Shown here: positions 3,907 to 47,500 of the stretch, piece after piece | Layout of the letters: the number at the start of each line of letters is the position of its first letter | Numbering within the stretch: the first letter of the stretch is position 1 | IMG/VR virus record: IMGVR_UViG_3300021295_000003 | Location: 1 to 64,000 of that record | Reading direction: 5' to 3' (one strand) | Length of the DNA stretch: 64,000 nucleotides | DNA from: a virus | Lineage: Duplodnaviria; Caudoviricetes | Position numbers and translations under genes: made by a program | Notes under the pieces: generated by a model | What the model was told of the DNA's origin: nothing | Databases searched by the model: none | Seen by the model: the letters and a program-made list of their open reading frames with translations, nothing else

Positions 3907-5076
3907 ATGGCTATTGAAGAAGAATCATTCTATAACATTGTTGGAGAGGAAATAAACCGTACAAACCTTGTTCAACAAATGATTAACTATTATGCCTTGA
4001 AATTAGAAGTCGGTGAAACAAGGATAACAGATTTCAATGAAGGCAGTGAAATACGAAACTTACTTGAAAGTATTGCAGTTGACTTATACTATCTGATGGA
4101 AGACCAAAACGAATTATCAAAAATCGCATTTGTAGATACAGCTGAAGGGGAATGGTTAGACAAGCATGGTGCAAATCCATTCATAAACTTACCACGTGAT
4201 ACTGGAAGCATGGCTACAGGTTATGTGGTTTTCAGCATACCTGAAGTTCAAACTACAGATATTGTAATTCCTGAAGAAACAATTGTAGTATGTGAAGAAA
4301 CAGGGCTTGAATACAGTACTGATAATGAGATTATCATTCCTGTCGGAGATGTGGAAGCTACAGCAAGTGTTACATGCTTAACTGAAGGTGTTGATGGAAA
4401 TTGTAGTAGTGGATCTATCACCTTGATTGATGATGATTACCTTGATATTCCTGAGTTAAGTGTTACTAACTTGGATGCGTTAACTGGTGGTACTGATTAT
4501 GAAGAGGATGATGAGTACCGTGAAAGGCTACTTGCATTCTTAAGGAAAGATGATTTTGGAAGCATTGGTTATTACCAGGAGTTAGGAGATAATGTGGATG
4601 GTGTGCATGATGTAGCATTATTCGATGCTACAGGATATACTAAGAAAGTATTGGTTAATGGTGACAGTAAACCAACTCCTGATGAGGTGTTAGCAGATGT
4701 CCTGGAAGTATACACCAGTAGTGAAAATATTGTTATTGGACATAATTTCACTGTAGATACTCCTGAGTATATAACTGTTAGTTTAACTGTTAATCTTGGC
4801 GTTGAAGTTGCATTAAGCACTACTGAAATAACTAATGTAATGTATGCAGTATTTGATGGTGGCAGTCCTGTAGTTGGAATGGATTTCGATGGTCTTGGAA
4901 TTGGAGAAACCTTGTTTAAATCAAGTCTTGTTTCTGCATTGGAATTATTCGATGCTGTAGTTAGTGTTAATATCATTGATAATGATACTGAGGAGGAATT
5001 CACAGACCTTAGTGTTAACAGTGATGAAGTATTGCAGTTAACTGACTTAACTATTAACCAAACAATCATAGAATAA
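3907..5076 (+). CDS. Baseplate J-like protein
   Basis: TAEGEWLDKHG..R..ATG.V.F and GGTDYEEDDEYRER motifs. Confidence 0.85.
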   Translation: MAIEEESFYNIVGEEINRTNLVQQMINYYALKLEVGETRITDFNEGSEIRNLLESIAVDLYYLMEDQNELSKIAFVDTAEGEWLDKHGANPFINLPRDTGSMATGYVVFSIPEVQTTDIVIPEETIVVCEETGLEYSTDNEIIIPVGDVEATASVTCLTEGVDGNCSSGSITLIDDDYLDIPELSVTNLDALTGGTDYEEDDEYRERLLAFLRKDDFGSIGYYQELGDNVDGVHDVALFDATGYTKKVLVNGDSKPTPDEVLADVLEVYTSSENIVIGHNFTVDTPEYITVSLTVNLGVEVALSTTEITNVMYAVFDGGSPVVGMDFDGLGIGETLFKSSLVSALELFDAVVSVNIIDNDTEEEFTDLSVNSDEVLQLTDLTINQTIIE

Positions 5077-5754: not shown

Positions 5755-7448
5755 GTAGTTTTTTAACGTTGGAAGATGTTAATAGTGTTGTTGGTGGTTT
5801 CGGTGCTTCTACTTTGTATCATGAGATAGATACTGGTAGTGTGGGCAGTGAAACTTTTGATAATGTTAAGATTGATTTCTGCATTGTTTCAAAGTCAGCT
5901 AATACTGTTAGTGTAACTGTTGAAAATGATGCGTGGATTGGTGCTTATTACACATTGGATAGTAATGGGGATTACCTGGGATTGACTGGAAATTATAATA
6001 GCAGTACTAAAACTCTTACATTCAATACTAATACTCATATTATAATCGGTTTTGTGTGTAATATGAGTGTGCCTAGTTTTAATGTTGCTAAAACTAAGTA
6101 TAAATTGGTTGAGGGTTATCCATTAGTGTTAGATTTCACTGAATTAGCTACATCTCAGGATATTCAGTACTTGGATTTAAGCACTGGAGATGTGAATACT
6201 GTCAGCAAGGTTTTAGCTGAAGGTGTTAATCAGGTTAGTAGTGGTGATTTCACTGATTATATTTATGTTTATTTGAAAAAGCATGATTTCGATTTCAATT
6301 TAACTACTAATGTATTGATTAATGGGAAACGGAATACTGTTAGTTTCGTTGCTCCAATGGTTGAGGAATTTGATACTTGGTGTAAAGTTTCTTATTTAGA
6401 TAAGAGTAGTAACTTTTATTTGAGTGATGGTAGTTTTATTGTTGATTTAACTGATTATAATAGTGACCGTAAGGTTGAATTAACTGTTGAATTGTTGGAA
6501 TCTGATTTGATTATTGGAAAAACATTAACCTTCAGGTTGAATGTGGATTATATTATGGTGGATAATTTCAGTGATCTCTATAATGAAGTGGTTAATGGTA
6601 CTGAAATATTGGAGTTGGGAGCTGATATTACTTGTCTGTCACGTATTCCAGTAACTCATGACCTTATTATCTATGGTAACGAGTATCTACTTGATTTAAA
6701 CGAGCATGGATTCAATATAAATGAAGATGTTATATTCAAGTTAGAAAAAGTCACATGCAATAATGGTGACACTGCTATTAAACAAGGATTAAATTCAAAA
6801 ACCGAGATAACCGATTGCACATTCACAAACTGCAAGTCCAGTAACTACAATAACCTAGGCAGCATAATCTACTGTGATGTAAACCTGGAAAGTTTAAGTG
6901 TAGAAACAGATTTCACAACAATCATAACAGATACCACATTCATAAACAACCATAACTGCATATTACATGGTGGAGAGTTAACAATTTCAGGCATTGAATA
7001 TCATAACACCAATCCTGAATGTGTAGATAACAACAATCCAGCATTCCTATATCAAACAGATGGAACTGCAGACATCAGAAACAGTGTATTTGACATAGAT
7101 TACGATACTAACATATTATGCAGTGATGAAATAAATCTAGGTTTCGCACAATGCCTTGTAATGTGTGGTGAAACTGCAATCATAAACACTGCCGATAGAG
7201 ATTACCTAGTGAATAATACATTACCATTCTTTGATTCCAATTTCTTAAACCGTAGTCATGTATTTGCAAGGTATTATTATCCAGCAATAAGTGCATGTGT
7301 AGTGACAAGTCCTGAAAGAGGCAAGGAAGATAAAAGCTTATGTTACTGTGTAAGTGGTAATGATTGGGTATTCAAGGAAAACGCAGTAATCAGTAGATTA
7401 GATGCTGGAGACATCAACACTATCCGTAAAATTACATGGGAGGAATAA
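5751..7448 (+). CDS. Tail-associated adhesin-like protein with beta-helix-like region
   Basis: ITDCTFTNC/ITDTTFINN repeats like those of methanogen adhesin-like proteins. Confidence 0.5.
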   Translation: MSSFLTLEDVNSVVGGFGASTLYHEIDTGSVGSETFDNVKIDFCIVSKSANTVSVTVENDAWIGAYYTLDSNGDYLGLTGNYNSSTKTLTFNTNTHIIIGFVCNMSVPSFNVAKTKYKLVEGYPLVLDFTELATSQDIQYLDLSTGDVNTVSKVLAEGVNQVSSGDFTDYIYVYLKKHDFDFNLTTNVLINGKRNTVSFVAPMVEEFDTWCKVSYLDKSSNFYLSDGSFIVDLTDYNSDRKVELTVELLESDLIIGKTLTFRLNVDYIMVDNFSDLYNEVVNGTEILELGADITCLSRIPVTHDLIIYGNEYLLDLNEHGFNINEDVIFKLEKVTCNNGDTAIKQGLNSKTEITDCTFTNCKSSNYNNLGSIIYCDVNLESLSVETDFTTIITDTTFINNHNCILHGGELTISGIEYHNTNPECVDNNNPAFLYQTDGTADIRNSVFDIDYDTNILCSDEINLGFAQCLVMCGETAIINTADRDYLVNNTLPFFDSNFLNRSHVFARYYYPAISACVVTSPERGKEDKSLCYCVSGNDWVFKENAVISRLDAGDINTIRKITWEE

Positions 7449-7453
7449 AAAAT

Positions 7454-9607
7454 ATGTATTTCACGAATATTAGTAACCCGGAATTACAACAATTCCATGA
7501 TTTAAGGTTTAGGAATTTCAGCATTAGTTTAACTGAAATACTATCCTCAAGTTTATTCCAGGTAGAAACCATCATACCTGAAAAATTATTCAAAATTTAT
7601 CCTTTATTCTACAGTAACGAAATCAAATGTAGCAATACTAATGATAAAATATTAGATAATAGATGCATTATTGCTAATAAGAATAGTAATGAAAGTTATT
7701 ATAGTTTCATTAGTGATGATACTGCTCCTATTGTAAGGTATAATGGTAATATTGGTTTCTTTGGTATTGGTGATGAGTTAAGTGTGGATGAGTTTAACAG
7801 TATCGTTCAACTTTATAGATCTAAAAATTTCACTGAAGAAATCATGATCAGGAATAGTCTTGTTAATGGACAGTTTGGTGATTATAGTTTTAACCTGGAA
7901 TCTACTACTATTGTTGATAATGGTGTTTTGATTACTAAAGAGACATTGGAGAATATTGGTACGGTCCGATTGTTAAATCCTGTGTTTCCGAATAGTAATT
8001 ACTTGTTGTCTTTGAAGGTGTATAGTGTTGAAGATTTCAACTTGGATTTAAGTGATAATGATAATATTATTGTTACTCCATTGGAGATACCGTTAGAGCA
8101 TAATGTTGATGTTAGTATTCCTTTTGAGACATTGGATTTGAATAATATTGTTGGTTTTGATGGTAGTATTAGTATTGACCATAACAGGAATATTGTACAA
8201 TATCCATTAAGTTTAACCGTGTCCAGCAGTACTCTTACTCCATCAGTGAATAAGGCTTTTGAATTATCTTGTTTGTACTTGGATGATGCTGGCGAACCTT
8301 TAACTGATGAGAATATTACGTTTAAGTTAACTGATGAAACGGTGCTTGGTACTGCGAGAACTGATAGTGAGGGTGTTGCTGTATTGGAGTATACACCAGG
8401 TAGTTTGGGAAACCTGGTGGTGTATTGTGTTGATAATCATAGTAATAAGTCAAGTAGTATTAGTTTAGAGGTTGTTAAGCAATCAAGTAATGTTACATTA
8501 ACATCTGATAAGTCATTAGTTTATATTCCTGGAAGTTTCACAGTAACTGGTAGTTTAACTGTTGAAGATGAGGCTTATACTGGTAGTGTTAAGTTAATGA
8601 ATAATGGTGTATTATTGGATACATTAGAAACTAACCGTTATGGTGTATTCAGTAAAACTATTAATGCTGATAGTGTTAGTAATTATCAGTTGCAAGTAGT
8701 GTTTGATGGGGATAATGTAGTTCAAGGTTCTACCAGTAGTTATGTTAATATAGTGGCTAGGAAATTGAATACTAACTTGTCTATTAATGTTAATAGGACT
8801 ACAGTTTATTTCGTTAGTCAAAATGTTACAATTAATGGTGTTTTAACTGATGAATTAGGTAATGGGATTAGTGGTGCTACAATCACATTGAACGGTGAAT
8901 CCTCAGCAGTTACTACTACAACAAACAGTAGTGGAGCATACAGTTTCACTAGAAGCCACAGTGAAGTTGTATCCTATTCATATAATACTAGTTATGCTGG
9001 AGATAGTACTCACAACAGTAAAACCTCAGCATCTAAAACAGTTAATTACAGAAAAGCACCAACAAGTGTTACTATACTCAATCCTCAAAGCGAATACGAA
9101 CCTGGGGATACTGTATTAATTAAAGTTTCATCAAATTATGGAACTTTTAATCCTAGTAGTGTAACTGTCTATTTATCTGCCCTTTATTCATGGGATACTT
9201 CTACAAAAGATGGTAATGGAAACTTTATATTTACAATTCCAACTGGTTTTAATGGGCAATACACATTAAGAGCAGTATACTATGGGGATACTTACTATGG
9301 TAGTAATGATGTTTCCATAGATATTAATATTGTTTATACTCCTGTTGATACGCTAACATTATCTAAAAGTGGGAATAACTTTATATTAAATTATAAGAAA
9401 AATGGAGTTAATGTTACAGGGTTAGATATTAGAGGAACAATATTATCTTTATCAAATCCTGTCTCTCAATTCCCATCTCAAGAGGGTACTCACACAGATA
9501 ATAGGGGAAATGTACCATGGGATATTAGTGCAATTATTTCAATGGGATTCCATGGTACTGCTAAATTCACATTTGCAGGAGTAACCAGTAACACACTAAC
9601 ATACTAA
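7454..9607 (+). CDS. Tail adhesin with tandem Ig-like (Big) domains
   Basis: Repeated G..TD.G..I.GA.ITL..TTNSSG.YSF and Y.GD..Y..S motifs. Confidence 0.65.
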   Translation: MYFTNISNPELQQFHDLRFRNFSISLTEILSSSLFQVETIIPEKLFKIYPLFYSNEIKCSNTNDKILDNRCIIANKNSNESYYSFISDDTAPIVRYNGNIGFFGIGDELSVDEFNSIVQLYRSKNFTEEIMIRNSLVNGQFGDYSFNLESTTIVDNGVLITKETLENIGTVRLLNPVFPNSNYLLSLKVYSVEDFNLDLSDNDNIIVTPLEIPLEHNVDVSIPFETLDLNNIVGFDGSISIDHNRNIVQYPLSLTVSSSTLTPSVNKAFELSCLYLDDAGEPLTDENITFKLTDETVLGTARTDSEGVAVLEYTPGSLGNLVVYCVDNHSNKSSSISLEVVKQSSNVTLTSDKSLVYIPGSFTVTGSLTVEDEAYTGSVKLMNNGVLLDTLETNRYGVFSKTINADSVSNYQLQVVFDGDNVVQGSTSSYVNIVARKLNTNLSINVNRTTVYFVSQNVTINGVLTDELGNGISGATITLNGESSAVTTTTNSSGAYSFTRSHSEVVSYSYNTSYAGDSTHNSKTSASKTVNYRKAPTSVTILNPQSEYEPGDTVLIKVSSNYGTFNPSSVTVYLSALYSWDTSTKDGNGNFIFTIPTGFNGQYTLRAVYYGDTYYGSNDVSIDINIVYTPVDTLTLSKSGNNFILNYKKNGVNVTGLDIRGTILSLSNPVSQFPSQEGTHTDNRGNVPWDISAIISMGFHGTAKFTFAGVTSNTLTY

Positions 9608-9621
9608 AGGTGGTAATAATT

Positions 9622-10080
9622 ATGGCTGAACATACATTAGCAGATGAAATAATAACCATCATAAAATCAGAATCCAATAACAACGAAGCACCACAAACAG
9701 GAACAGTAAACCACATCTACACTAACGGCTACGTAGACATACAACTAACCAATAATGGAGACATCATAAAATACATACAATGCATAGGAGAACCCAAAAC
9801 CAATAAAAACGGAGTAATAGTGTTCCTAAACGGAACACTAGACAATCCAATATTCATAGTAGACCATGACACAACCGAACAAACAATCCTAGCACTAGGC
9901 TTAGGATTATTCACAATCGGCAGTGATGGTGACTTATACGTGGAACTACCTAACGGTATCTCCAACCCATTCAGCATTAATGAAGATGGAGATTTATTAG
10001 TAGAAATTCCTGATGGTGCAACCAATGATTACGAAATAAACAGTGATGGAGACATAACATACGATAGGTGGGATATATAA
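9622..10080 (+). CDS. Putative baseplate spike/OB-fold protein with short C-terminal repeats
   Basis: GTV..VDI..GEPK..GVIVFLNG pattern; three F.I..DGDL-like repeats. Confidence 0.35.
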   Translation: MAEHTLADEIITIIKSESNNNEAPQTGTVNHIYTNGYVDIQLTNNGDIIKYIQCIGEPKTNKNGVIVFLNGTLDNPIFIVDHDTTEQTILALGLGLFTIGSDGDLYVELPNGISNPFSINEDGDLLVEIPDGATNDYEINSDGDITYDRWDI

Positions 10081-10523
10081 TGACAACATATAACTTAGGA
10101 CATGTAGTAGGAAGCGATGGAAGACCAGGAGACAAAGGAGACAAGGGAGATAAAGGAGATAAAGGAGACAAGGGAGACCCAGGCACTATAACAATAGACA
10201 CCAGCCTCTCCACAACATCAACTAATGCAGTGCAAAACAAAGCAATAGCAACAGCAGTAAACGGCAAAGCAAACACAACCCATACACACAGCATTAGTGA
10301 TGTAACCACATTGCAGACAGCATTGAATGGAAAAGCTGAAACCTCACATACTCATACGATTAGTGATGTTACTAATTTACAGACATCATTAGATGCTAAA
10401 ATCAACACATCTGACATTGCTAATAACCTGACAACAACAACATCAGGAAAAGTATTAGATGCAAGACAAGGAAAAATACTGGCAGACCTCATAGGTGATG
10501 CTATTGATTATATCAACTTATAA
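10080..10523 (+). CDS. Short tail fibre protein with collagen-like and HxH fibre repeats
   Basis: (GDK)5; two HTH.ISDVT.LQT.L repeats. Confidence 0.7.
   Translation: MTTYNLGHVVGSDGRPGDKGDKGDKGDKGDKGDPGTITIDTSLSTTSTNAVQNKAIATAVNGKANTTHTHSISDVTTLQTALNGKAETSHTHTISDVTNLQTSLDAKINTSDIANNLTTTTSGKVLDARQGKILADLIGDAIDYINL
10128..10178 (+). repeat. 9-bp tandem repeat encoding collagen-like GDK
   Basis: ggagacaaa ggagacaag ggagataaa ggagataaa ggagacaag ggagac. Confidence 0.85.
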
Positions 10524-10538
10524 AGGGAGTGTTAGATT

Positions 10539-11465
10539 ATGCCTAATGATACAACTACATTGAATGGAGCATTAAGACAACTTGGAGAAACAATGGCTGC
10601 CAACCTAACCACACAGGGCGTACCATCTACTTATGATGAGGGATTGACTACATTAGCTGGAAAAATCCTAGACATTCAAGGTGGAGGAGGCACTAGGACC
10701 TTAACCTTAACTGCTGATAAAAGTATATTGTCTTATTATGATGGTGATGAGGCTATACTTAGTGCTACCCTCTTGGAAGATGGTGTAGCAGTATCAGGGG
10801 CTACTGTAGAGTTCTTCAACGGTAGTACAAGTATGGGTACGGCTCAAACTGACAGTAATGGTGTAGCAACAAAAACCTACACTTCAACTGGTGCGGGTGA
10901 TGTGTCATTGAAAGCAGAGGCAGATAATGGTATGTTAGTATCAGAAACATACACTATTGAAGATTGTGTTTATTATAATGATGGTAGTAGGACAACTGGA
11001 ATGCAAAAAACAAGTAGTGCATCAATCAGTACAAATGGAGAGTATGTTGTGCTTGGTTCGACTGGAAGTAGTGAACAACACATTGGATATGGATTATCTT
11101 ATCAATCAAGTGATAATTTTGAAATCAGTTGTGTTTTAGATTATACCAATGCACAATCATATGCTTACTCATTCCTATTATGTGCAAGTAACTCTCTTGG
11201 TGGTTCAAGTTGTTATATGAATGTTAATAAATCTAATGGAAGATTAACTGACCATCTTGGTTCAAGTTCAAAAACTTACACTCTAACATTCGCTACTGGT
11301 GATAAAATCACTATTCGTAGATTAAATGGGAATTGGGTAATCTTACTTAATGATACAGTAATTTCAACAACTGCTTATACTTGGACTGGTGAGAGAATGA
11401 TTGGGCATTATACTTATCGTGAATACTCAATCTATATGAAAGATATAATCATCAAACCATTATAA
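10539..11465 (+). CDS. Receptor-binding adhesin: Ig-like domain plus switchable C-terminal domain (expressed variant)
   Basis: Big-like VSGATVEF..GTAQTDSNGVAT; C-domain starts SETYTIEDC and ends KDIIIKPL. Confidence 0.7.
   Translation: MPNDTTTLNGALRQLGETMAANLTTQGVPSTYDEGLTTLAGKILDIQGGGGTRTLTLTADKSILSYYDGDEAILSATLLEDGVAVSGATVEFFNGSTSMGTAQTDSNGVATKTYTSTGAGDVSLKAEADNGMLVSETYTIEDCVYYNDGSRTTGMQKTSSASISTNGEYVVLGSTGSSEQHIGYGLSYQSSDNFEISCVLDYTNAQSYAYSFLLCASNSLGGSSCYMNVNKSNGRLTDHLGSSSKTYTLTFATGDKITIRRLNGNWVILLNDTVISTTAYTWTGERMIGHYTYREYSIYMKDIIIKPL
10932..10967 (+). repeat. Left inversion site (inverted repeat of 11934-11971)
   Basis: ATCAGAAACATACACTATTGAAGATTGT (10940-10967) matches the reverse complement of 11934-11961 at 24/28; overlaps the dyad GTATGTT-N9-AACATAC. 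Confidence 0.7.
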
Positions 11466-11972
11466 TGGTTTGATTTTAATATTTTTGATGGATATACTGT
11501 TTGCTCTCCATTGAGTAAACTTGAAAGTTTCTGTACTATAATTGGATAACCAAGTAGTGGAATAATCAGAGGTATCAACTACATTGCCTTGATATTGGAA
11601 TTCTACATCAGTTCCCTCTTTTTTGACTTGAACTGGATAGAATGTTCCGTTATCCATATTCACATTACTTGATTTCAATTCCTCACCAGTACCAGTTTTC
11701 CCAATATAACATCTGAAATAATTGTTGACGGTTGATTTACCGAAACCAAGATGATGGGCTAAACTTTCAGATGGTGGGACGATGTCTATCCGTTGACCCA
11801 TTCCACTTACACTTAATTCACAAGTGAATATCCAGTCATCTGTGTTATCCCAACTGAAACCATCGATTACAGTATTTGAAACTGCACTTGATGAACTATG
11901 AGTCCTTGAATGAGTAGTAGTATCATACAGGAAACAATCTTCAACACTGCATATTTCTGATGAAAATATACG
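11460..11972 (-). CDS. Silent alternative adhesin C-terminal cassette
   Basis: Frame opens after an in-frame TAA (11975-11973): RIFSSEICSVEDCFLYD...ISIKNIKIKPL; paralogous to the C-domain of 10539..11465; the ORF-track start at 11801 is internal. Confidence 0.75.
   Translation of the reverse strand, partial: RIFSSEICSVEDCFLYDTTTHSRTHSSSSAVSNTVIDGFSWDNTDDWIFTCELSVSGMGQRIDIVPPSESLAHHLGFGKSTVNNYFRCYIGKTGTGEELKSSNVNMDNGTFYPVQVKKEGTDVEFQYQGNVVDTSDYSTTWLSNYSTETFKFTQWRANSISIKNIKIKPL
11934..11971 (-). repeat. Right inversion site
   Basis: Minus strand GTATATTTTCATCAGAAATATGCAGTGTTGAAGATTGT with dyad GTATATTT-N7-AAATATGC. Confidence 0.7.
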
Positions 11973-12032
11973 TTACAGGAACAATGAAAACATACACCCA
12001 AAACCATTCACATCGAAAAGGAGGCATGATAA

Positions 12033-12164
12033 ATGAAAAAAGAAAACCCACATCAAGGTTGCCCATACAGGCACACCTGCAAAAAAGATGAAACCCAATG
12101 CTGCTACCTACTCAGCAACAGGGAATGCTACCTAAACACAAACAAAAGCAAAAGATTCATATGA
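12033..12164 (+). CDS. Small Cys-rich protein upstream of endolysin
   Basis: MKKENPHQGCPYRHTCKKDETQCCYLLSNRECYLN..; GGAGG upstream; homologue at 31282..31434. Confidence 0.6.
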   Translation: MKKENPHQGCPYRHTCKKDETQCCYLLSNRECYLNTNKSKRFI

Positions 12165-12331
12165 ACCCTGAAAACCGAAGACTAAAAGAAATCCAATCTG
12201 AAAAACTAGTATGGCAAGACCAACTAGACAAAGCAGACACTATAAGCGATTGCCTAACATTCAAAGGCAAAATCGAAATAATAGAAAACGAAGAAAAAGA
12301 AATCCTAAAAAGAAACGATGTGATAATATGA
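12161..12331 (+). CDS. Small helical protein (MNPENRRLKEIQ...)
   Basis: ATGA overlaps with both neighbours. Confidence 0.55.
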   Translation: MNPENRRLKEIQSEKLVWQDQLDKADTISDCLTFKGKIEIIENEEKEILKRNDVII

Positions 12332-13005
12332 CTAGATTCAGCAAAGCTGAAATGAACGCAGCAGCAAAAACAATAAGAAAACAACTAAAAAATATGAAAG
12401 GATACCCTGCAAGTATCAACATGGTAGACATGAATAAAAAAGTGCATAAAATCTCTAAAGCATATTATATGGGATTATTCGAAGCACAAAACATATTCAT
12501 AATGAAAAACGGCAGATACCCAAACTATGTAACATTAAACTCAAAAGCAAACAATCCATTAGTAATGGATTATCAAGATAACGGTTACACATGTGGACCA
12601 ACTAGTTTAAGCATGGCAATTCAAATGCTATTCAGTTACAAAAGTGAAAAAACCTGTGCAAAAGAATGTGGAACAATCATAGGCTCAGGCACCACACCTG
12701 ACAAACTTATAGCAGGTGCAAAAAAACTAGGATACAAAGTAACCAAAATAAACAGAAACAGTAACGCAGTAAAAAACAGCACCAGTAAAGGATTTCCAGT
12801 AATAGCGCATATTCAAACCAAACCAGCAACATGTCTAGGTTACGTTGGAGATTATGGACACTACATACTAATCTATGGAATGACCAATGATGGATTATAC
12901 AAAATCGCAGACCCAACCAAAGGAATCAAAAAATGCAAACCAAGCATACTAGACAAAGCAACCAACGGCAGAAGCATACACTACTACAAGGTGGAAATCA
13001 TATGA
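12328..13005 (+). CDS. Endolysin: pseudomurein-binding repeat plus peptidase C39 (PeiR-like)
   Basis: NGRYPNYVT PMBR-like motif; QDNGYTCGPTSLSMA..GHY..ADP; 225 aa from ATG 12328, the same length as its paralogue at 30603. Confidence 0.8.
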   Translation: MTRFSKAEMNAAAKTIRKQLKNMKGYPASINMVDMNKKVHKISKAYYMGLFEAQNIFIMKNGRYPNYVTLNSKANNPLVMDYQDNGYTCGPTSLSMAIQMLFSYKSEKTCAKECGTIIGSGTTPDKLIAGAKKLGYKVTKINRNSNAVKNSTSKGFPVIAHIQTKPATCLGYVGDYGHYILIYGMTNDGLYKIADPTKGIKKCKPSILDKATNGRSIHYYKVEII

Positions 13006-23090: not shown

Positions 23091-23287
23091 TGCAGATGGG
23101 TTTAGGGTTAGCGTGTAACTTATGTGGTGAGTGTGTTAGTGTCTGTTCTGGTAAGGCACTAACCATTACCAGTGATGAGTTGGTCTTTGATGGCAGTAAG
23201 TGTACTTACTGTGAGTCTTGTATGGACGTCTGCCCAGAATGTGCGATTAGAATATATGAAAGGAGATGGAATAATGCCCTTAATTAG
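23087..23287 (+). CDS. 2[4Fe-4S] ferredoxin
   Basis: CNLCGECVSVC and CTYCESCMDVCP. Confidence 0.85.
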   Translation: MMQMGLGLACNLCGECVSVCSGKALTITSDELVFDGSKCTYCESCMDVCPECAIRIYERRWNNALN

Positions 23288-24260
23288 ATTTCTATTCAAA
23301 GAAGATGAAAAAATAATAGAAGACATCGTATCTGAAAGAAATGTCAAACCTAAAACAGCACAAACTTATTATCAAACCGTTTCTCATTATTCCGAATATT
23401 TCAACAAACCATTTACTAAATTAATCAAAATTTATCAGAAAGAAGAGGAATCAAAGGTCTGGAAAAAAAGAACCTTAAAAAAACATTTGGTAGCATTCCG
23501 CAATCATTTGTACAACACATATTTACAAAAAACTGCTAAAATTTATTTTTCAAAACTACTGACCATTTTTAGACATTTGGAAATCGAATTAAGTTATCTT
23601 CCAAAATTGAATAATAAAAACATCAATGAACTTCCACCGATAACTTATGAAGATTTACTGACTAAACAAGACTTGCAAAGGGCTTATGATATCGCAAATC
23701 CTACAATGAAAGCAGTTATATTGTTCCAGTCTTCAAGCGGTTGTGCAAGAAGAGAAACTTTGAACTTAACTGTGGAAGATTATATTTTAGCAAATAATGT
23801 TCAGATTGAAGACATTCCACTTAAAACTTTATTGTTAAAGATAGATACAAATGGAATCCCCTCATTTAAGCTTTTAAGACAAAAAACAAACAAGTATTAT
23901 TTCACATATTGCAGTCCAAGAGCAAATAGAGAGATATTTGAATTGTTAATAAATAGAGATAATCTTACATTGCAAAGCCCTTTATTTGATTTGAATTTAT
24001 ACTATTGGAACAAATATTACGCCGAAATCAATGAGGAATTAGGATTGGGTAAAGTAAGAACTTTTAACAAGTTCAGAAGCCATATGATTCGTAAGTTTCA
24101 TGCCAGTACATTGTATAACAATGGTTTAAGTATGGATGATGTAGATAGTCTTCAAGGTAGAGGTAAAGACAGTACACATCAAGCATACTTTATGGAAGAC
24201 CCTAAACTTCTTAAAAAGAAGTATATCGATCATATGGATTGTTTGTTATTGGAGGTTTAA
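23274..24260 (+). CDS. Tyrosine recombinase
   Basis: SSGCARRE, HMIRKFH, LQGR, AYF; the ATG at 23274 follows an AGGAGA RBS. Confidence 0.85.
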   Translation: MPLIRFLFKEDEKIIEDIVSERNVKPKTAQTYYQTVSHYSEYFNKPFTKLIKIYQKEEESKVWKKRTLKKHLVAFRNHLYNTYLQKTAKIYFSKLLTIFRHLEIELSYLPKLNNKNINELPPITYEDLLTKQDLQRAYDIANPTMKAVILFQSSSGCARRETLNLTVEDYILANNVQIEDIPLKTLLLKIDTNGIPSFKLLRQKTNKYYFTYCSPRANREIFELLINRDNLTLQSPLFDLNLYYWNKYYAEINEELGLGKVRTFNKFRSHMIRKFHASTLYNNGLSMDDVDSLQGRGKDSTHQAYFMEDPKLLKKKYIDHMDCLLLEV

Positions 24261-28889: not shown

Positions 28890-29086
28890 GCATACAAATA
28901 AACAGATTTGAAGTAATAAGTTTAGACAGAGTAGACAAAAACGTATTAGCAGTAAAAGACCACAAAACCGACGAAACAATAATAACAATCAAAGTAAGCA
29001 ACTATGAAGACAATAAAAAGATTGGCGAAGGCATAATCGAATTATTAGAAGAACTAATACAAAATAAGGACATTAAATATGAATAA
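28886..29086 (+). CDS. Hypothetical protein
   Basis: Coupled ORF. Confidence 0.45.
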   Translation: MSIQINRFEVISLDRVDKNVLAVKDHKTDETIITIKVSNYEDNKKIGEGIIELLEELIQNKDIKYE

Positions 29087-29795
29087 AATCAATACAAAGA
29101 AATATGAAGGAGTAATCACTTCTGTCTTGATTGATGACCGTGAGGGAGTCCGAAAGGATTACGCAATGGAGCAATACGCTCCATTCAATCCTTTAATCAA
29201 TCATTTATACATAGGGGATTATATTTTCGTAGGGGACAATGGAAAAATAGTTGTATTTGAGTACAAGACCGGATCAGACTTCCTGAACAGTATAACACAG
29301 GATAACCATTTACATAACCAAGTTTATAATATGATTACTAATTTTAAGTATACTTTTGTTATTGTTGAAAGTGAGGATTTACGAAGGGAATGTGATGAGT
29401 TATATTATAGTAGTGGCGTGTCTGTGAATATGCAACAAATAAACGGTGCTATTTCAACATTCTGTACTAATTCGACTGTTTTATTCGCTCAAACTACTTA
29501 TCAAGCTTTTGACCTGATGATGAGAATGGCAGGGAAAATAATCATTGACGAACCTATTGCATACAAATATGGAAAAAAGACTACAAATAGTGCTTTAAAT
29601 TATTTGAGCAGTATTAAGGGTTTGGATAGTAAAGCACGTATTATATGTAGAGAATTAGATTTAAGAACCTTGAATGATTTGTTAAATCTACGTAAAGAGG
29701 ATTTAACAACAGTTAAAGGGGTGGGTGACAAATTGGCTGAAAAGATTTTAGCTGAAATAGGAGTTGCCCAAAATGGATTACAAACAAAAGATTAA
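29079..29795 (+). CDS. ERCC4/XPF-family nuclease with HhH (resolvase-like)
   Basis: IDDRE, GDY, EYKT..DF..SI; HhH IKGLD and VKGVGDKLA. Confidence 0.8.
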   Translation: MNKINTKKYEGVITSVLIDDREGVRKDYAMEQYAPFNPLINHLYIGDYIFVGDNGKIVVFEYKTGSDFLNSITQDNHLHNQVYNMITNFKYTFVIVESEDLRRECDELYYSSGVSVNMQQINGAISTFCTNSTVLFAQTTYQAFDLMMRMAGKIIIDEPIAYKYGKKTTNSALNYLSSIKGLDSKARIICRELDLRTLNDLLNLRKEDLTTVKGVGDKLAEKILAEIGVAQNGLQTKD

Positions 29796-37241: not shown

Positions 37242-37850
37242 CTATATTGGTTTAATATTTGTTGTTTGTTCTGTTTGATAAATAAATTCGACAAATAAGT
37301 TCTCTGGTTTATCGGTTAAAGGTTCGCCCTCAATGTGAGGTGCTAAAACAGTTAAATCAGTTGCAGACAATACATTAGAAGTGAATGGCTTACGTTTCGG
37401 TCTAATAATCTGCAAATAATTACCATTAGCAGTATAAACATTCACATAACTATTATTAACAAAACCAATGTCCGCTTCTACTAAATCATCATTAACATAA
37501 TGGTAATCCTCAAATTCTCCATTTTGGAACATCATCTCGGTGAAATAACACGGATTATCATCATCAACATTAATCAAGACTAATTCTAACTGTATTTGAT
37601 AAATCTCTTCTAAATCGGCTTCGGATAACTCGAAACTATCGTGATAACTACTCCAAGTTTCATCAATAGCCCACCTACTTCCAGTATAGAAAGGGTTATT
37701 GATTTCGTTCCCCTCGTAATCAAAGCAATGGAGAATATAATACATTACAGCGACTGTTCTACATTTTAAATAGTTCACAGAGAATGTTATTGTCCCTGCT
37801 TCCATCTCGTGATTTTGTTTTGGGAATAAAATATGTATCTCATCTTGCAT
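37242..37850 (-). CDS. Tail protein (possible carbohydrate-binding fold)
   Basis: Position; beta-rich sequence. Confidence 0.45.
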   Translation of the reverse strand: MQDEIHILFPKQNHEMEAGTITFSVNYLKCRTVAVMYYILHCFDYEGNEINNPFYTGSRWAIDETWSSYHDSFELSEADLEEIYQIQLELVLINVDDDNPCYFTEMMFQNGEFEDYHYVNDDLVEADIGFVNNSYVNVYTANGNYLQIIRPKRKPFTSNVLSATDLTVLAPHIEGEPLTDKPENLFVEFIYQTEQTTNIKPI

Positions 37851-37853
37851 AGT

Positions 37854-39560
37854 TTACAACCTCTTGATTTTCAAATAATTAAATGTTACAAAACTGGAAA
37901 CGAACTTTTTGTCCACTGCGGAGTTTTGAGCAGGTTCAGCCATCAAGAAAGAAGTTACCCCACTTATATCCCCTGAAAAAGATGTAATTAATACACTATT
38001 ACGATAGATGTAATATGTACCATTCTGATGTCTAAACCTTACCACATCATTCGCTTTTACAGAAAACCCATCTCCCATAAAGATAGAAAGTAAAGCATTC
38101 TGATAAGTAACATTTTCCCAATAATAACCTTGACCCTTTGTTTTTTTCTCATTAAATACAGATTGGGCTTGAACAACACTTAAAGACACTTCAAAATCAA
38201 TACTCAAATCCAAAGCAACACTAATAGAAGACCCATTCGTTAATTTATAACCTGTACTCAAACTCTGCAACGAACCATTAACATTAGTATACTCTTGATT
38301 ATAAGAAACACCACTTGCTCTCCAATACTGCAAAACATCTTCAATAGTCAAACTGCTTGAACTACCTGTAATTGCTGCGGAAACATTCACATCACCTGCC
38401 CCTGATCCGTTATATTGTTTGACTATTAAACCATCTTCACTTGTAGTATATGTTCCACTTATCGCTCCTGTGAAATTCACAGGGATTGGAGTTTCTGCTC
38501 CTTGTACAGTTGCAGTAATAGTTGATTGATAGTTTTGAGAAGTAATCAAAGTATCAGCGGTTAATGAAACAGTAACATCAGGGTATAATACAATAGTAAT
38601 ATAATCTGAATAATAAGTCACATCATCAATAGTTGTAGGTAATCTAAATGTCCATCTCCTTTCAGAAACAACAGATGCAGGTTCGTGAGGGTATGGACGA
38701 GATATATTTACTTCTCCATTGCTATCAGTAGTAACGTCCCATATTGTTTGGTTTGCTATACCTTGTCCAAGATAATTCTCCAATCTTGCACGGATATTCA
38801 CATTTTCAAAATTAACAGAATAAGGAGAATAAGATAATATTTGTATAAGGTATCCTACACTTATATTGAAAGTTAATTCACTTGCTCCGCTGTGTTCGTC
38901 ACCTTCAAAATTAATTCTAATGGTATGACTGCCATCAGTTAATCCATTAACTTCAAGAGTTGTATTCCCTCTATCGGTATTAGCTGGGAGAGTAATATTA
39001 GTTGTACCTTGGCTTACATCATCAATAAACCATTCAACAGATTTAACTTCTGCCTTAACAAAAGATTGTCCACTTACAAATTCAATAGGTAATGAGAAAG
39101 CTGAATTTGGAGTATAATTAACGGTTGAGTCATTATATCTTCTAATAGTGGAAGAATAAGCGTCAGGAGTTGGTTCAGTAATAGTTATAAGTCTTGATTT
39201 ACTTCCAAGACAACGGTCATTGCCTTTAAACCTTGCACGGAGATTATGCTCAACATCATAATTCAAATGAACATTAAACGTAAGTTCAGGGTCTTCTTCG
39301 CTCCAATCAATCATATCTGTTTGTAATCCTCCAACGAAAATAGGTATAGGTTCGTCATTATCGTAAACAATAATGTTACTTGTTCCTTTTTCCCCTACCA
39401 CATCAACGGTGAAAGTTTGAACCCCATACTCAATCCTACTATTAGAAAAAGAAACAGGAGTTAAAGTAATGTCAGTTGATTTCGTATAACCAACATCACC
39501 TAAAACCTCAAAAGCTTCTTTTTTTATTTCATAATCGTAGTAAGTTTTTATTCTTGCCAT
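37854..39560 (-). CDS. Ig-like adhesin with C-domain related to the switchable domain of module A
   Basis: GSGAGDVNVSA..SLTIEDVLQY..YLKIKRL. Confidence 0.6.
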   Translation of the reverse strand: MARIKTYYDYEIKKEAFEVLGDVGYTKSTDITLTPVSFSNSRIEYGVQTFTVDVVGEKGTSNIIVYDNDEPIPIFVGGLQTDMIDWSEEDPELTFNVHLNYDVEHNLRARFKGNDRCLGSKSRLITITEPTPDAYSSTIRRYNDSTVNYTPNSAFSLPIEFVSGQSFVKAEVKSVEWFIDDVSQGTTNITLPANTDRGNTTLEVNGLTDGSHTIRINFEGDEHSGASELTFNISVGYLIQILSYSPYSVNFENVNIRARLENYLGQGIANQTIWDVTTDSNGEVNISRPYPHEPASVVSERRWTFRLPTTIDDVTYYSDYITIVLYPDVTVSLTADTLITSQNYQSTITATVQGAETPIPVNFTGAISGTYTTSEDGLIVKQYNGSGAGDVNVSAAITGSSSSLTIEDVLQYWRASGVSYNQEYTNVNGSLQSLSTGYKLTNGSSISVALDLSIDFEVSLSVVQAQSVFNEKKTKGQGYYWENVTYQNALLSIFMGDGFSVKANDVVRFRHQNGTYYIYRNSVLITSFSGDISGVTSFLMAEPAQNSAVDKKFVSSFVTFNYLKIKRL

Positions 39561-44551: not shown

Positions 44552-47500
44552 TTAATTACCAGTAGCTGGATTAATACCCAAAATATCAAGAATTTGTTTT
44601 CCACTTCTTTCGTCAATCCTTTTATTATTCACTTCAACATCGTTTCCGTGAACATTAATTTCAATATTAGTATTGTAAGTATCTCCACCGTTTGTAGGTA
44701 CATCGCCTTTTGTTGCGTATCTACGAGGCATACTACCTGCGTTATAACCTTTAACAGCACTACTTGTGAAACTACCTCTGTTCTGTATAGCAGTAGGGTC
44801 AATAATACCAAGACCCGGAATATTAGCCCATACGTGACCTATACCGTTCCAAGTACCGTGTCCACGTGAACCTTCAAATCCAAATGCTCTTGCAATTGCA
44901 AGGACAATATTAGTACCGTCCCAACAATTAAATGCTCCCGCTCTCAAAGCAGCAACAGGGTCATCACCGAAATTACTATCAAAGTATTTATCATAATCAG
45001 TAGCACGAATAACATCGAAAATATACTGTTTCGCAACATCAGCTCTACCTTTAACAGGGAAATTACTATTTTCAAACTTACCTACATTTAGGAAATCGTC
45101 AAGGTGATATGCTCCGAAATGAGTATTCCAACCTTTAAACTTCTTACTAATCTTATTAGTCCAGTTAAAGTTCCAACCACCTGCATAGCAAGGTTTACCT
45201 GTTTCCATCATACATTTTAAGTATTCTAACATACTATTATCAGAAGGTTGTCCGCTACTACGTCTTCCTTTGAAGAGTGATTGACTTCTACTGATTGTAC
45301 CTCCTGCGTAATGCCCATTCGCACGTCCACCTGTAAACCTGCGTCTAATAGACCCAGTATGCCCTCCTTGACTACCAATCAACTGGTCTGGGTGTTTAAT
45401 CTTATTCCAAAACTCTCCAAGATTAGATTTCAATTTATTAATCTTCTGACCTGTTTGAGTCTTGATATGGTCGGCACTTGCAATTAATGCGTCTTGCATT
45501 CCTCTCCAAGATGTTTTAATGTTTCCAATATTACCAATTGTGGCTGCTTTCATATTTGACAAGCTTGAACGTGTTTTCGCTACAATGTTGGTGAAACTTG
45601 ATTGTATACCTGTCTTCATAGCATTAAAGTTTGTAACAACTTGTGATTTCATACCAGTTACAGTAGGTAGAATAGTAGAAATTGACTGTTTGAATTGGTC
45701 GAGGTTAGGAAGTTGAATATTGCCTAAACCAAATGTAGGGTTGAAGTTAGTAGTTAATGATTGAGCTAACTGTGAAGCCATTTGAGGTAAGTTCAAACCC
45801 CCTGTGTTAGTCAAAGCTTGACCGATGTAACCCATCTCATCAGATACCGCCCTTGCCATTTTACCTGGACTGTGCTGATCCAATCCATTGTTATCTTTGA
45901 AACCATTAGACAAGGAAGTACCCAAAGCAGCCCCTCTGTCATAGAAATCTTGTTTACGCTCATCAAGATATTGTAAAGCATATCCTACTTCGGTTTCAAC
46001 GGTGCTTTTGATTTTAGCATTGTCCTTAAAACCATTGGATAATTTTTCTCCGAGTCCTTTTCCTTTACTACTCATTGTGTCAGATAACCCTGTAAGAGCA
46101 GAAGAAACGTCGCTATTTAAGGAGGTTAATCCTTCTTTGACTCCACTTACGATAGCAGTACCCATATTCTTTGCAGTTGCCTTAACAGTAGGGATTGCTC
46201 CTGTCAGGGTAGTTTTGGTATTATTGATTTGGGTTTGCAATGCAGACACAACATTACTTGCATTAGTCACTCCACTTGTATCCCCACTTCCAGTAGCAGT
46301 TAAACCATTAATTTTAGTATTGAAGTTCATTATGTCTTTAACAGACATATATAACTCATCTAATCCGCTTTTAAGACCACTTGCTTGTGGGTTTCCATCT
46401 CCAATTAAGTAACCAACTGCTGCTCCAAGAATACCCCCACTTGCCATATTTCCTTGCCAAGAAGCGTCCACAGCACTTCCCATAGCATTTTTAACAGCGT
46501 CAATAGCGGTTTGAATAGCACTAATACCATTAGCACTATTTTGAAGGGCAGCGACTTTATCAGGATTAATCGGTTCAACAGTAATGTTTTCATTGAAGTT
46601 TTTAACAAACTCGTTTAACTGGTCTATTGGTTGTTTTAATTGTTCAAAGTAGTTAGTTACACCATTAGTGTCTGCTGTGGCTGCTCCACTTACTGCGTCT
46701 TGGTATTTTTCGTTTGGTGAACGAGTATCTGTTTCAAAGTTTGGTAAATCTTTTAAGGCTTCTTTTACAGTTACTAATGCAGTTTTAACACTATCTATAC
46801 CAGTAGCAGACTCTGACAAAGTAGTAACTTTCGCAGAGTCAATTTGGGTAATTTCTAATTTATTAAAATCAGTTATGAAAGTTTCTAATTGAGAGAAGAA
46901 ACCTCCTTCACCAGTTAATTGAGTTAAATCCGCACCAATCTTAACTCCAATTAAATTAGCAACAGCAGTAGCAAGACTATCCCAAGCAATCAAAGCAAAA
47001 GCACTCATAGCTTGTTCAACATAACCTAACGCTTCGGCAGTTAATTTAATAGCCTCTGCACCTTGTTGAACATTACTTAAATCAGTAAACTTATCCCCCA
47101 ATGCTCCTATTTGTTGCAATGGATATTCAAGACTCCAAATAGTTTCGGCAACCCATAACATACCGATAGGAATGCCTAATGTAATTGCAGTTCCCATAAT
47201 CGCTCCAAGAATTGGATTAGCAAATGCAATCGCAACAGTAGCAATCGCCAAAGCCAAAGCAGGGATAAATGGTGCAAGATACATTAAAGAGTCAGACACA
47301 ATCTTCATAGCTTGTGTTCCTTTTTGCACTTGTGCTTGAATACCACTATACTGGTCGCCTAATGCTCCAATCGCCCAAATACTTGGAATAATCATTACAA
47401 TAGTTTCTGCTACAAGCAACATACCTGCTACAATACCAATCGCTGCTTTAAGAGTTCCTGTAACAATTTGAGTATAAGATGGAGCATATTTATCCATAAT

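Follow-up and report, generated by a model that had tools for sequence, protein, structure and literature searches.

Invertible modules that exchange the C-terminal part of a receptor-binding protein have been described in bacteriophages, plasmids and archaeal viruses. In the G segment of phage Mu (serine invertase Gin) and the C segment of phage P1 (serine invertase Cin), the N-terminal part stays constant and its alternative C-terminal parts lie in opposite orientation, with repeats at the boundary between constant and variable sequence, and the outcome is host-range phase variation. In the R64/IncI1 shufflon (tyrosine recombinase Rci, sfx sites, PilV tips), adhesin C-termini are swapped in frame at short sites that consist of a conserved arm and a central 7-base region. 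In the halovirus phiCh1, crossover takes place in clusters of 30-bp repeats. For archaeal viruses, fibre inversion is documented in the literature searched only for the phiCh1 group. According to those passages of PMC6471424 and PMC8371274 that cite Klein et al. (2012), the invertible tail-fibre module of the tailed viruses phiCh1, phiH1 and ChaoS9 comprises two inversely oriented fibre coding regions, and its inversion by the tyrosine recombinase Int1, encoded between the two fibre genes of phiCh1, swaps the C-terminal parts and changes adhesion specificity. Here we analyze a tail adhesin gene and its inverted second tip in the virus record IMGVR_UViG_3300021295_000003 of IMG/VR, which is 104.7 kb long and whose first 64 kb form the window. 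The locus probably represents a real host-range inversion switch, and we consider it reasonably likely that it acts as a functional two-cassette switch for the receptor-binding tip of the tail adhesin of a Methanobrevibacter virus.

The adhesin open reading frame (ORF; 10539–11465, plus strand) encodes 308 amino acids (aa) and ends in KDIIIKPL*. It consists of the constant part of a tail adhesin or fibre gene (10539–10929, plus strand) and an expressed tip, cassette A (10968–11465, plus strand). Tail-to-tail with this ORF lies a minus-strand frame (11972 to 11463) that is open for 170 codons and reads ...L*RIFSSEICSVEDC...KNIKIKPL*; it contains a silent tip, cassette B (11460–11933, minus strand). 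The stop codons of the two tip frames overlap in TTATAA (11460–11465), and the two convergent C-terminal codon strings (..IKPL*) form a palindrome (11436–11489) that is followed by T-runs on either strand. A first-pass annotation of this DNA had stated that the minus-strand domain has no start at its beginning and an in-frame TAA four codons upstream, and this was confirmed by ORF scan and translation: the TAA (11973–11975, minus strand) closes the silent frame directly outside the repeat, four codons before SEICS. No ATG, GTG or TTG is present in the silent frame between this TAA and position 11801, where an ATG at residue 54 of the 166-aa domain encoded from 11960 to 11463 provides the first start codon, for an ORF of 113 aa. 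The silent tip lacks a Shine-Dalgarno sequence, whereas neighboring real genes carry AGGGAG or AGGAGG, and it is the sole unopposed minus-strand frame within a 30-kb block of plus-strand genes.

AlphaFold (AF2) models of the products were built with small alignments, and their folds were compared by Foldseek. In the model of the active protein, two N-terminal helices (residues 6–46, low confidence) precede an Ig-like domain (53–129, high confidence; Pfam Big_1/Big_3_5 match at aa 69–139), a strand formed by the junction motif (133–143) and a β-sandwich (145–307). The silent cassette modeled alone also forms a β-sandwich (pLDDT 80). The whole active protein matches the galectin-like structure 1oq1, SPRY domains, carbohydrate-binding modules (CBMs) and the Douge baseplate protein (8zdo), and tip B matches CBM66 (4b1m), galectins and CBM2 of the phage J-1 Dit protein (5ly8) with a Foldseek probability of 1.00. 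As modeled, both tips are ConA-like lectin/CBM β-sandwiches and predicted sugar binders, and these matches to lectins and CBMs support the glycan-binding nature suggested for the tip. The earlier description of the two C-domains as paralogues holds for their fold and conserved end motifs and fails for their overall sequence: BLASTP aligns only the last 16 residues, and sequence paralogy of the tips was rejected on this ground. Tips A and B are alternatives of one fold class, not recent duplicates.

Both domain boundaries carry the 28-bp inverted repeat reported before (10940–10967 versus 11961–11934), with 24 of 28 positions identical, an identical TTGAAGATTGT at its end and a shared reading frame. 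We find that it extends to 38 nt (10930–10967 and 11934–11971; 30/38 identical, 79%), which makes it the longest separated inverted repeat in 2 kb. Its ungapped score of 16 compares with a mean of 10.9 (standard deviation 1.1, maximum 14) for 100 codon-block shuffles. The left arm, G-MLVSETYTIEDC (10930–10967, plus strand), is situated at the constant/variable boundary and holds two stretches that are identical in the right arm, ATCAGAAA and TTGAAGATTGT. The right arm, R-IFSSEICSVEDC (11934–11971, minus strand), is in the same reading frame, such that both arms stand in one codon register of the motif S-E-x-[YC]-x-[IV]-E-D-C. The dyads quoted for the two arms, GTATGTTA-gtatcag-AAACATAC on the left and GTATATTT-tcatcag-AAATATGC on the right, are both present in the sequence. 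In silico inversion of 10948–11953 yields an intact, open ORF of 300 aa (...NGMLVSEICSVEDCFLYD...KNIKIKPL), which bears out the proposal that inverting the ~1 kb between the arms fuses the other domain in frame. Together, the ORFs and the in silico flip uphold the view that a single expressed gene is accompanied by an alternative C-terminal domain that is silent, inverted and in frame.

Just outside the right arm, the minus strand at 11972–11999 reads GTATGTTTTCA|TTGTTCCTGTAA, much as if the repeat's outer edge ran straight into the opening codons of tip B (..TTGTTTCCTGTA..). Judged from its sequence, this stretch is a possible scar or collapsed junction copy.

The adhesin consists of a constant part (anchor helices and Ig domain) and a variable, lectin-like tip, with a second tip downstream that is inverted and has neither promoter nor start codon. 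In the mechanism that we favor, recombination between the 38-nt arms would invert the intervening ~1 kb, join tip B in frame to the constant part (300 aa) and silence tip A, and the virus population would thereby display one of two glycan-binding specificities. The locus in the window would still flip, with exchange presumably inside the identical ATCAGAAA or TTGAAGATTGT, beside the GTATnTTn...AAAnATnC dyad. A tyrosine recombinase acting in trans, either a viral Xer-like enzyme or one of the host, would perform the flip, and the flip would alter which cells are bound. Whole tips also appear to pass from one virus to another at this junction.

Such a switch works like those of Mu G, P1 C and the phiCh1 group, without a serine invertase, an embedded Int1 or repeat clusters. 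As in Mu and P1, a constant N-terminal part is combined with oppositely oriented C-terminal parts, and host-range phase variation is the outcome proposed here. In contrast to these phages, the 104.7-kb record lacks a serine recombinase, as do four relatives, and the segment contains neither a second gene of the U/U' chaperone type nor a recognizable gix-like sequence. The likeness to the phiCh1 group lies in the archaeal tailed virus, the two inversely oriented fibre coding regions and the enzyme class, as tyrosine recombinases are also available in the virus of the window. Unlike in phiCh1, the two tips abut stop-to-stop, a single short and imperfect repeat pair is present with no repeat clusters in 10300–12300, the second copy comprises no more than a tip of ~166 aa without a start, the tips have a lectin fold, and the hosts are methanogens with pseudomurein walls. 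The window resembles the R64 shufflon in the in-frame swapping of adhesin C-termini at short sites, and differs from it in having two cassettes only, no adjacent rci-like gene and a location in a virus instead of a plasmid pilus locus; two relatives described below (G003 and G004) come closer to it, with three or more cassettes that need successive inversions.

An active gene with an inverted silent tip and a boundary repeat recurs in at least five distinct viruses. The complete 54-kb genome G001 (IMGVR_UViG_3300028454_000233), which has terminal repeats, encodes a tip-bearing fibre of 756 aa tail-to-tail with a silent tip, with a 35-nt repeat that contains the same TTGAAGATTGT core. G004 and locus L059 of a Methanobrevibacter metagenome-assembled genome (MAG) each carry two fibre genes, both with their own inverted spare tip. 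In the published Methanobrevibacter virus vir075 (BK068243.1), CDS_00051 and CDS_00052 form the active/silent pair, with a 78-nt repeat at the boundary; of the 58 genes, CDS_00052 alone is on the minus strand. This virus shares with the window the junction motif (SETYNITDC), the tail-to-tail layout and a PeiR endolysin; in contrast to the window, its constant part is very short (~25 aa) and the pair is annotated as two hypothetical proteins. The silent tip of vir075 (28945–29433; L052, 8773–9369) is annotated from an internal Met, and its frame is open for 36 codons further upstream, into the 78-nt repeat.

The comparison of related genomes for flipped or extra cassettes, which had been suggested as a check, revealed both: an inversion between G002 and G003, and three or more cassettes in G003 and G004. 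G002 and G003 are IMG/VR records from different metagenomes that are 99.98% identical over 27.5 kb; beyond this stretch, G003 matches the final 1.2 kb of G002 in the opposite orientation. The two records part at a 55-nt imperfect repeat within the fibre gene. This repeat coincides with the last Ig strand and lies just upstream of the junction motif, at a boundary equivalent to that of the window. The exchange, confined to 13 identical bases, put tip X in the place of tip Z without loss of frame, and a third tip, Y, lies between these two. Ordinary homologous recombination needs more than 13 identical bases, and a site-specific or microhomology-dependent process is therefore more likely. The end of G003 matches Methanobrevibacter chromosomes at 75–95% identity in 78 of 81 genomes, and both records are therefore Methanobrevibacter proviruses. 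In G003 (37275–39264; L038, 4310–6299), Z is active, Y direct and X inverted, and Y can be reached only after a first inversion, as in a shufflon. At their outer edges, the silent X arm (GTATATTTTGAT) and the silent arm in the window (GTATATTTTCAT) are similar, but in different reading frames.

The junction itself shows signs of constraint at the level of DNA. A dyad GTATG-N13-CATAC recurs at the junction, in active and silent arms of several viruses, and the bases GT remain constant while the residue preceding the ATG at the junction varies (G, C, R). The retention of GT despite the varying residue, together with the recurrent dyad, points to, without proving, selection on the junction DNA, as expected for a recombinase site. 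In several viruses the homology of the arms ends exactly at the edge of the dyad, beside a stop codon; the silent arms of other viruses have their stop codon 1–2 codons outside the GTAT motif.

Domain scans agreed with the first-pass annotation that no invertase is adjacent. The candidate trans-acting invertase is a Xer-like tyrosine recombinase (23274–24260, plus strand; Pfam PF00589), which scores 29 bits with the NCBIfam XerA model, far below the cut-off of 220, and has a paralogue at 77265–78275 of the full record. Both are 34% identical to the tyrosine recombinase of G001 that is located 88 bp beyond the silent tip of that genome. G001 encodes two tyrosine recombinases, one at the genome end beside the silent tip (3–980) and one 45 kb away (approximately 44965–45486); one of them could be an invertase and the other the integrase. 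The sole recombinase of vir075 is its integrase. No serine recombinase (PF00239) was found in the whole 104.7-kb record (G000) or in G001, G003, G004 and G005, and control genomes gave matches. With respect to a host site, only 12 of 81 Methanobrevibacter genomes contain the pattern GTATNTTNNNATCAGAAANATNC (≤1 mismatch), and in G006 the only non-proviral match to it falls within a coding frame. No recognizable tip cassettes accompany the 12 genus matches (L065–L075), and the generic dif-core pattern ACATAA-N6-TTATGT is no commoner than its reversed control. Among the 81 genomes, with the dif sequence of the genus itself not established, no universal host site of the form of the arms was found, and the notion that the arms mimic a host dif site is not supported by these patterns.

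Database proteins indicate that the tips are exchangeable modules. Tip B stands in frame at the C-terminal end of full-length Ig-repeat fibres: P0121 is 89% identical over 100% of the cassette, six further homologues (P0122–P0127) are fused in the same position with 60–65% identity, and all seven share the SETYxxxD junction. Tip A occurs as a short unfused ORF in P0001 (177 aa, beginning MFSSETY...; 94% identical) and P0128 (93%), and P0001 is located on a 73-kb contig whose fibre, P0039, bears another tip. Each tip type thus occurs both fused and unfused in nature. In the other direction, the N-terminal 143 residues of the adhesin are 87–98% identical in many database proteins that bear unrelated C-domains; these proteins diverge fully right after ..LVSETYxIEDC and reconverge on ..K[ND][IL]K[IV]KPL.

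Searches for further loci of the same type gave little. Scans of viral contigs with either tip and of genome contigs with the N-terminal alignment yielded no related loci, and a scan of metagenome contigs yielded 25, mostly distant, with the tail-to-tail layout only in L003, where it is cut by the contig end. A back-translated tip B pattern matched no IMG/VR contig, and a pattern for the CMNLQETYS-type junction matched only G004. A six-frame scan of the 104.7-kb record revealed only two cassettes with junction and end motifs. One ENA protein, P0036 (505 aa), contains two complete units of Ig domain, junction and lectin tip in tandem in one ORF (..LKDIKIKPF-ESINLVAS..LKIKAL) and, from its sequence, looks like the product of deletion or direct-orientation recombination between junctions.

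A second fibre gene appears to draw on the same tips. The 723-aa Ig-repeat fibre of the window (7436–9607, plus strand) ends without a lectin tip, while its 756-aa homologue in G001 (L032, 1590–3875) has one after ..GFYAFSGTFSSERYIVEDC. In metagenome run X5, a contig end links the G001-type fibre end to the junction sequence of the window. On the basis of this homologue and this contig joint, the same tips seem to serve two different fibre genes.

The stretch occurs in 24 sequencing runs, all of them animal gut or faecal metagenomes available as contigs. In three gut metagenomes, 10924–11980 forms a separate node of 1057 nt with a depth of 66, 121 and 44, compared to about 107, 329–380 and 202 for the left flank and about 90, 307–373 and 153–188 for the right flank. 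The left flank is a long unbranched contig, and the graph branches at 10932/10953 and 11954/11980. Other contigs join the same flanks to other tips, for instance one of the P0004 type (VPYYDGATSD), and some retain the central palindrome with both tips replaced. The lower depth of the node and the other tips on the same flanks indicate that the tip region is hypervariable within samples. At one contig end the right flank is joined to AGTGTATG, eight bases that are the reverse complement of the inner bases of the left arm; a flip with exchange in ATCAGAAA would create precisely this right-hand junction. One joint of opposite strands (10967 to 11477) was considered as a flip and rejected, as it belongs to a different tip whose conserved end matches the palindrome.

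A less favored explanation, which we rate as rather unlikely, is that the inverted tip is a static relic or reservoir, left from unprogrammed recombination between related viruses and no longer flipping usefully, and that diversity arises mainly by whole-cassette exchange. Co-infecting viruses or proviruses would then exchange cassettes at the conserved junction and the conserved ..K-I-K-P-L end. Several observations weigh against a working switch or for this alternative. At least six unrelated tips are found on N-termini that are 87–98% identical, and several tip variants stand on identical flanks in one sample; this indicates that cassette replacement, not only a two-state flip, acts at the junction. 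Tips are commonly replaced through other recombination, which could have produced the layout with no programmed flipping. No flipped arrangement of this cassette pair was found in the contigs of four metagenome runs, although contigs drop rare variants and the absence of a flipped contig is weak evidence, and none of 5.8 billion database proteins joins this N-terminus to tip B. The graph has no branch at 10948, where the reciprocal left junction would show, the node 10903–10953 being unbranched, and the eight-base loose end could belong to a co-resident variant with a silent tip starting SSETYT. The arms are only 79% identical, and the centers of the putative 8-7-8 cores differ at two positions (GTATCAG versus TCATCAG); unequal 7-base centers usually hamper tyrosine recombinases. 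No recombinase gene adjoins the locus, the nearest being the one at 23274–24260, ~11 kb away, and G003, which inverted, has no detectable recombinase. Several relatives keep an ATG three codons before the junction of their silent tips where the window has ATA, a possible scar lies upstream, and the 'TFSSE' that lies beyond the silent arm recurs at the end of the long fibre of the G001 type, which suggests capture from another gene.

Other observations weigh for a functional inversion switch and against a relic. The silent frame is fully open over its 170 codons and has a confidently predicted fold, the silent tip is 89% identical to a working copy, and at least five distinct viruses retain the inverted arrangement. 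In addition, near-identical proviruses differ by an inversion at this kind of boundary, and in several viruses the arm homology stops at the edge of the dyad beside a stop codon.

It is improbable that the minus-strand frame is an independent gene for a free lectin, with a start at 11801 or a non-canonical start near 11969. An ATG-initiated ORF of 113 aa does exist, and the silent tips of relatives often start with M-F-[SQ]-S-E and are reported by gene callers (P0001; CDS_00052 of vir075). Against this, the start at 11801, which the first-pass annotation had raised as a contrary possibility, would drop four predicted strands of the sandwich (residues 11–52 of the model), and translation from there is unlikely because these are its first four strands. 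Upstream of 11801 the frame offers no ATG, GTG or TTG after the TAA, no Shine-Dalgarno sequence is present here or before the ATGs of the silent tips of relatives, and a lone unopposed minus-strand frame in a plus-strand block is also what is seen in vir075. A free tip would, moreover, lack its virion anchor. Chance similarity or an assembly artefact is very improbable: the record is a metagenome assembly and the repeat short and imperfect, but several runs independently yielded the 1057-nt node with identical ends, the repeat outscores all 100 shuffles, and the layout recurs in independent assemblies and in the published genome of vir075.

Beyond the single locus, a possible though doubtful extension of the inversion switch is that Methanobrevibacter viruses share a tail-tip 'plug', formed by the junction strand with its dyad and the ..KIKPL end, in which one trans-acting tyrosine recombinase, viral and Xer-like or from the host, flips spare tips, and that tips also move between fibre genes and between viruses. 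If so, the viruses of a gut population would take their lectin tips from a shared stock, with the remainder of the genome staying clonal.

Methanobrevibacter dominates methane production in ruminant and human guts, and to our knowledge very little is known about host recognition by methanogen viruses. A switch of the receptor tip would account for the way in which these viruses follow changing cell-wall glycans, and it would make hosts harder to predict from genomes, since silent tips are annotated as separate hypothetical genes, as in vir075. The tips could serve as ready-made, swappable binding modules for methanogen surfaces, and the missing dedicated invertase raises the question which tyrosine recombinase works in trans. 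A full-text literature search gave no description of fibre inversion in methanogen viruses, with a mention in the survey of Medvedeva et al. (2023) being possible, and the paper on MSTV1 describes no inversion.

The assignment to a methanogen virus, made in the first-pass annotation, is borne out by the gene context and the relatives. From 1 to 30 kb of the window every gene is on the plus strand, in a module of tail and baseplate genes that includes baseplate J (3907–5076), a collagen/PTR-repeat fibre protein (10068–10523) directly upstream of the adhesin and a PeiR-like C39 endolysin (12211–13005). The endolysin DNA is 69% identical to that of the Methanobrevibacter gottschalkii virus vir075, and fibre loci related to that of the window are found in a Methanobrevibacter MAG; on these two grounds the host assignment is sound, and the chromosomal flank of the provirus relative G003 agrees with it.

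The small fibre protein encoded at 10068–10523 combines collagen-like G-D-K triplets with phage tail repeat (PTR) and fibre-repeat motifs. Its collagen-like stretch draws metagenome contigs from many other organisms, with a depth spike at 10085–10201. Finally, the 104.7-kb record contains, besides the two paralogous Xer-like recombinases, a second virion module on the minus strand with its own endolysin region (31–54 kb of the window), and may represent one large genome or two related genomes joined.

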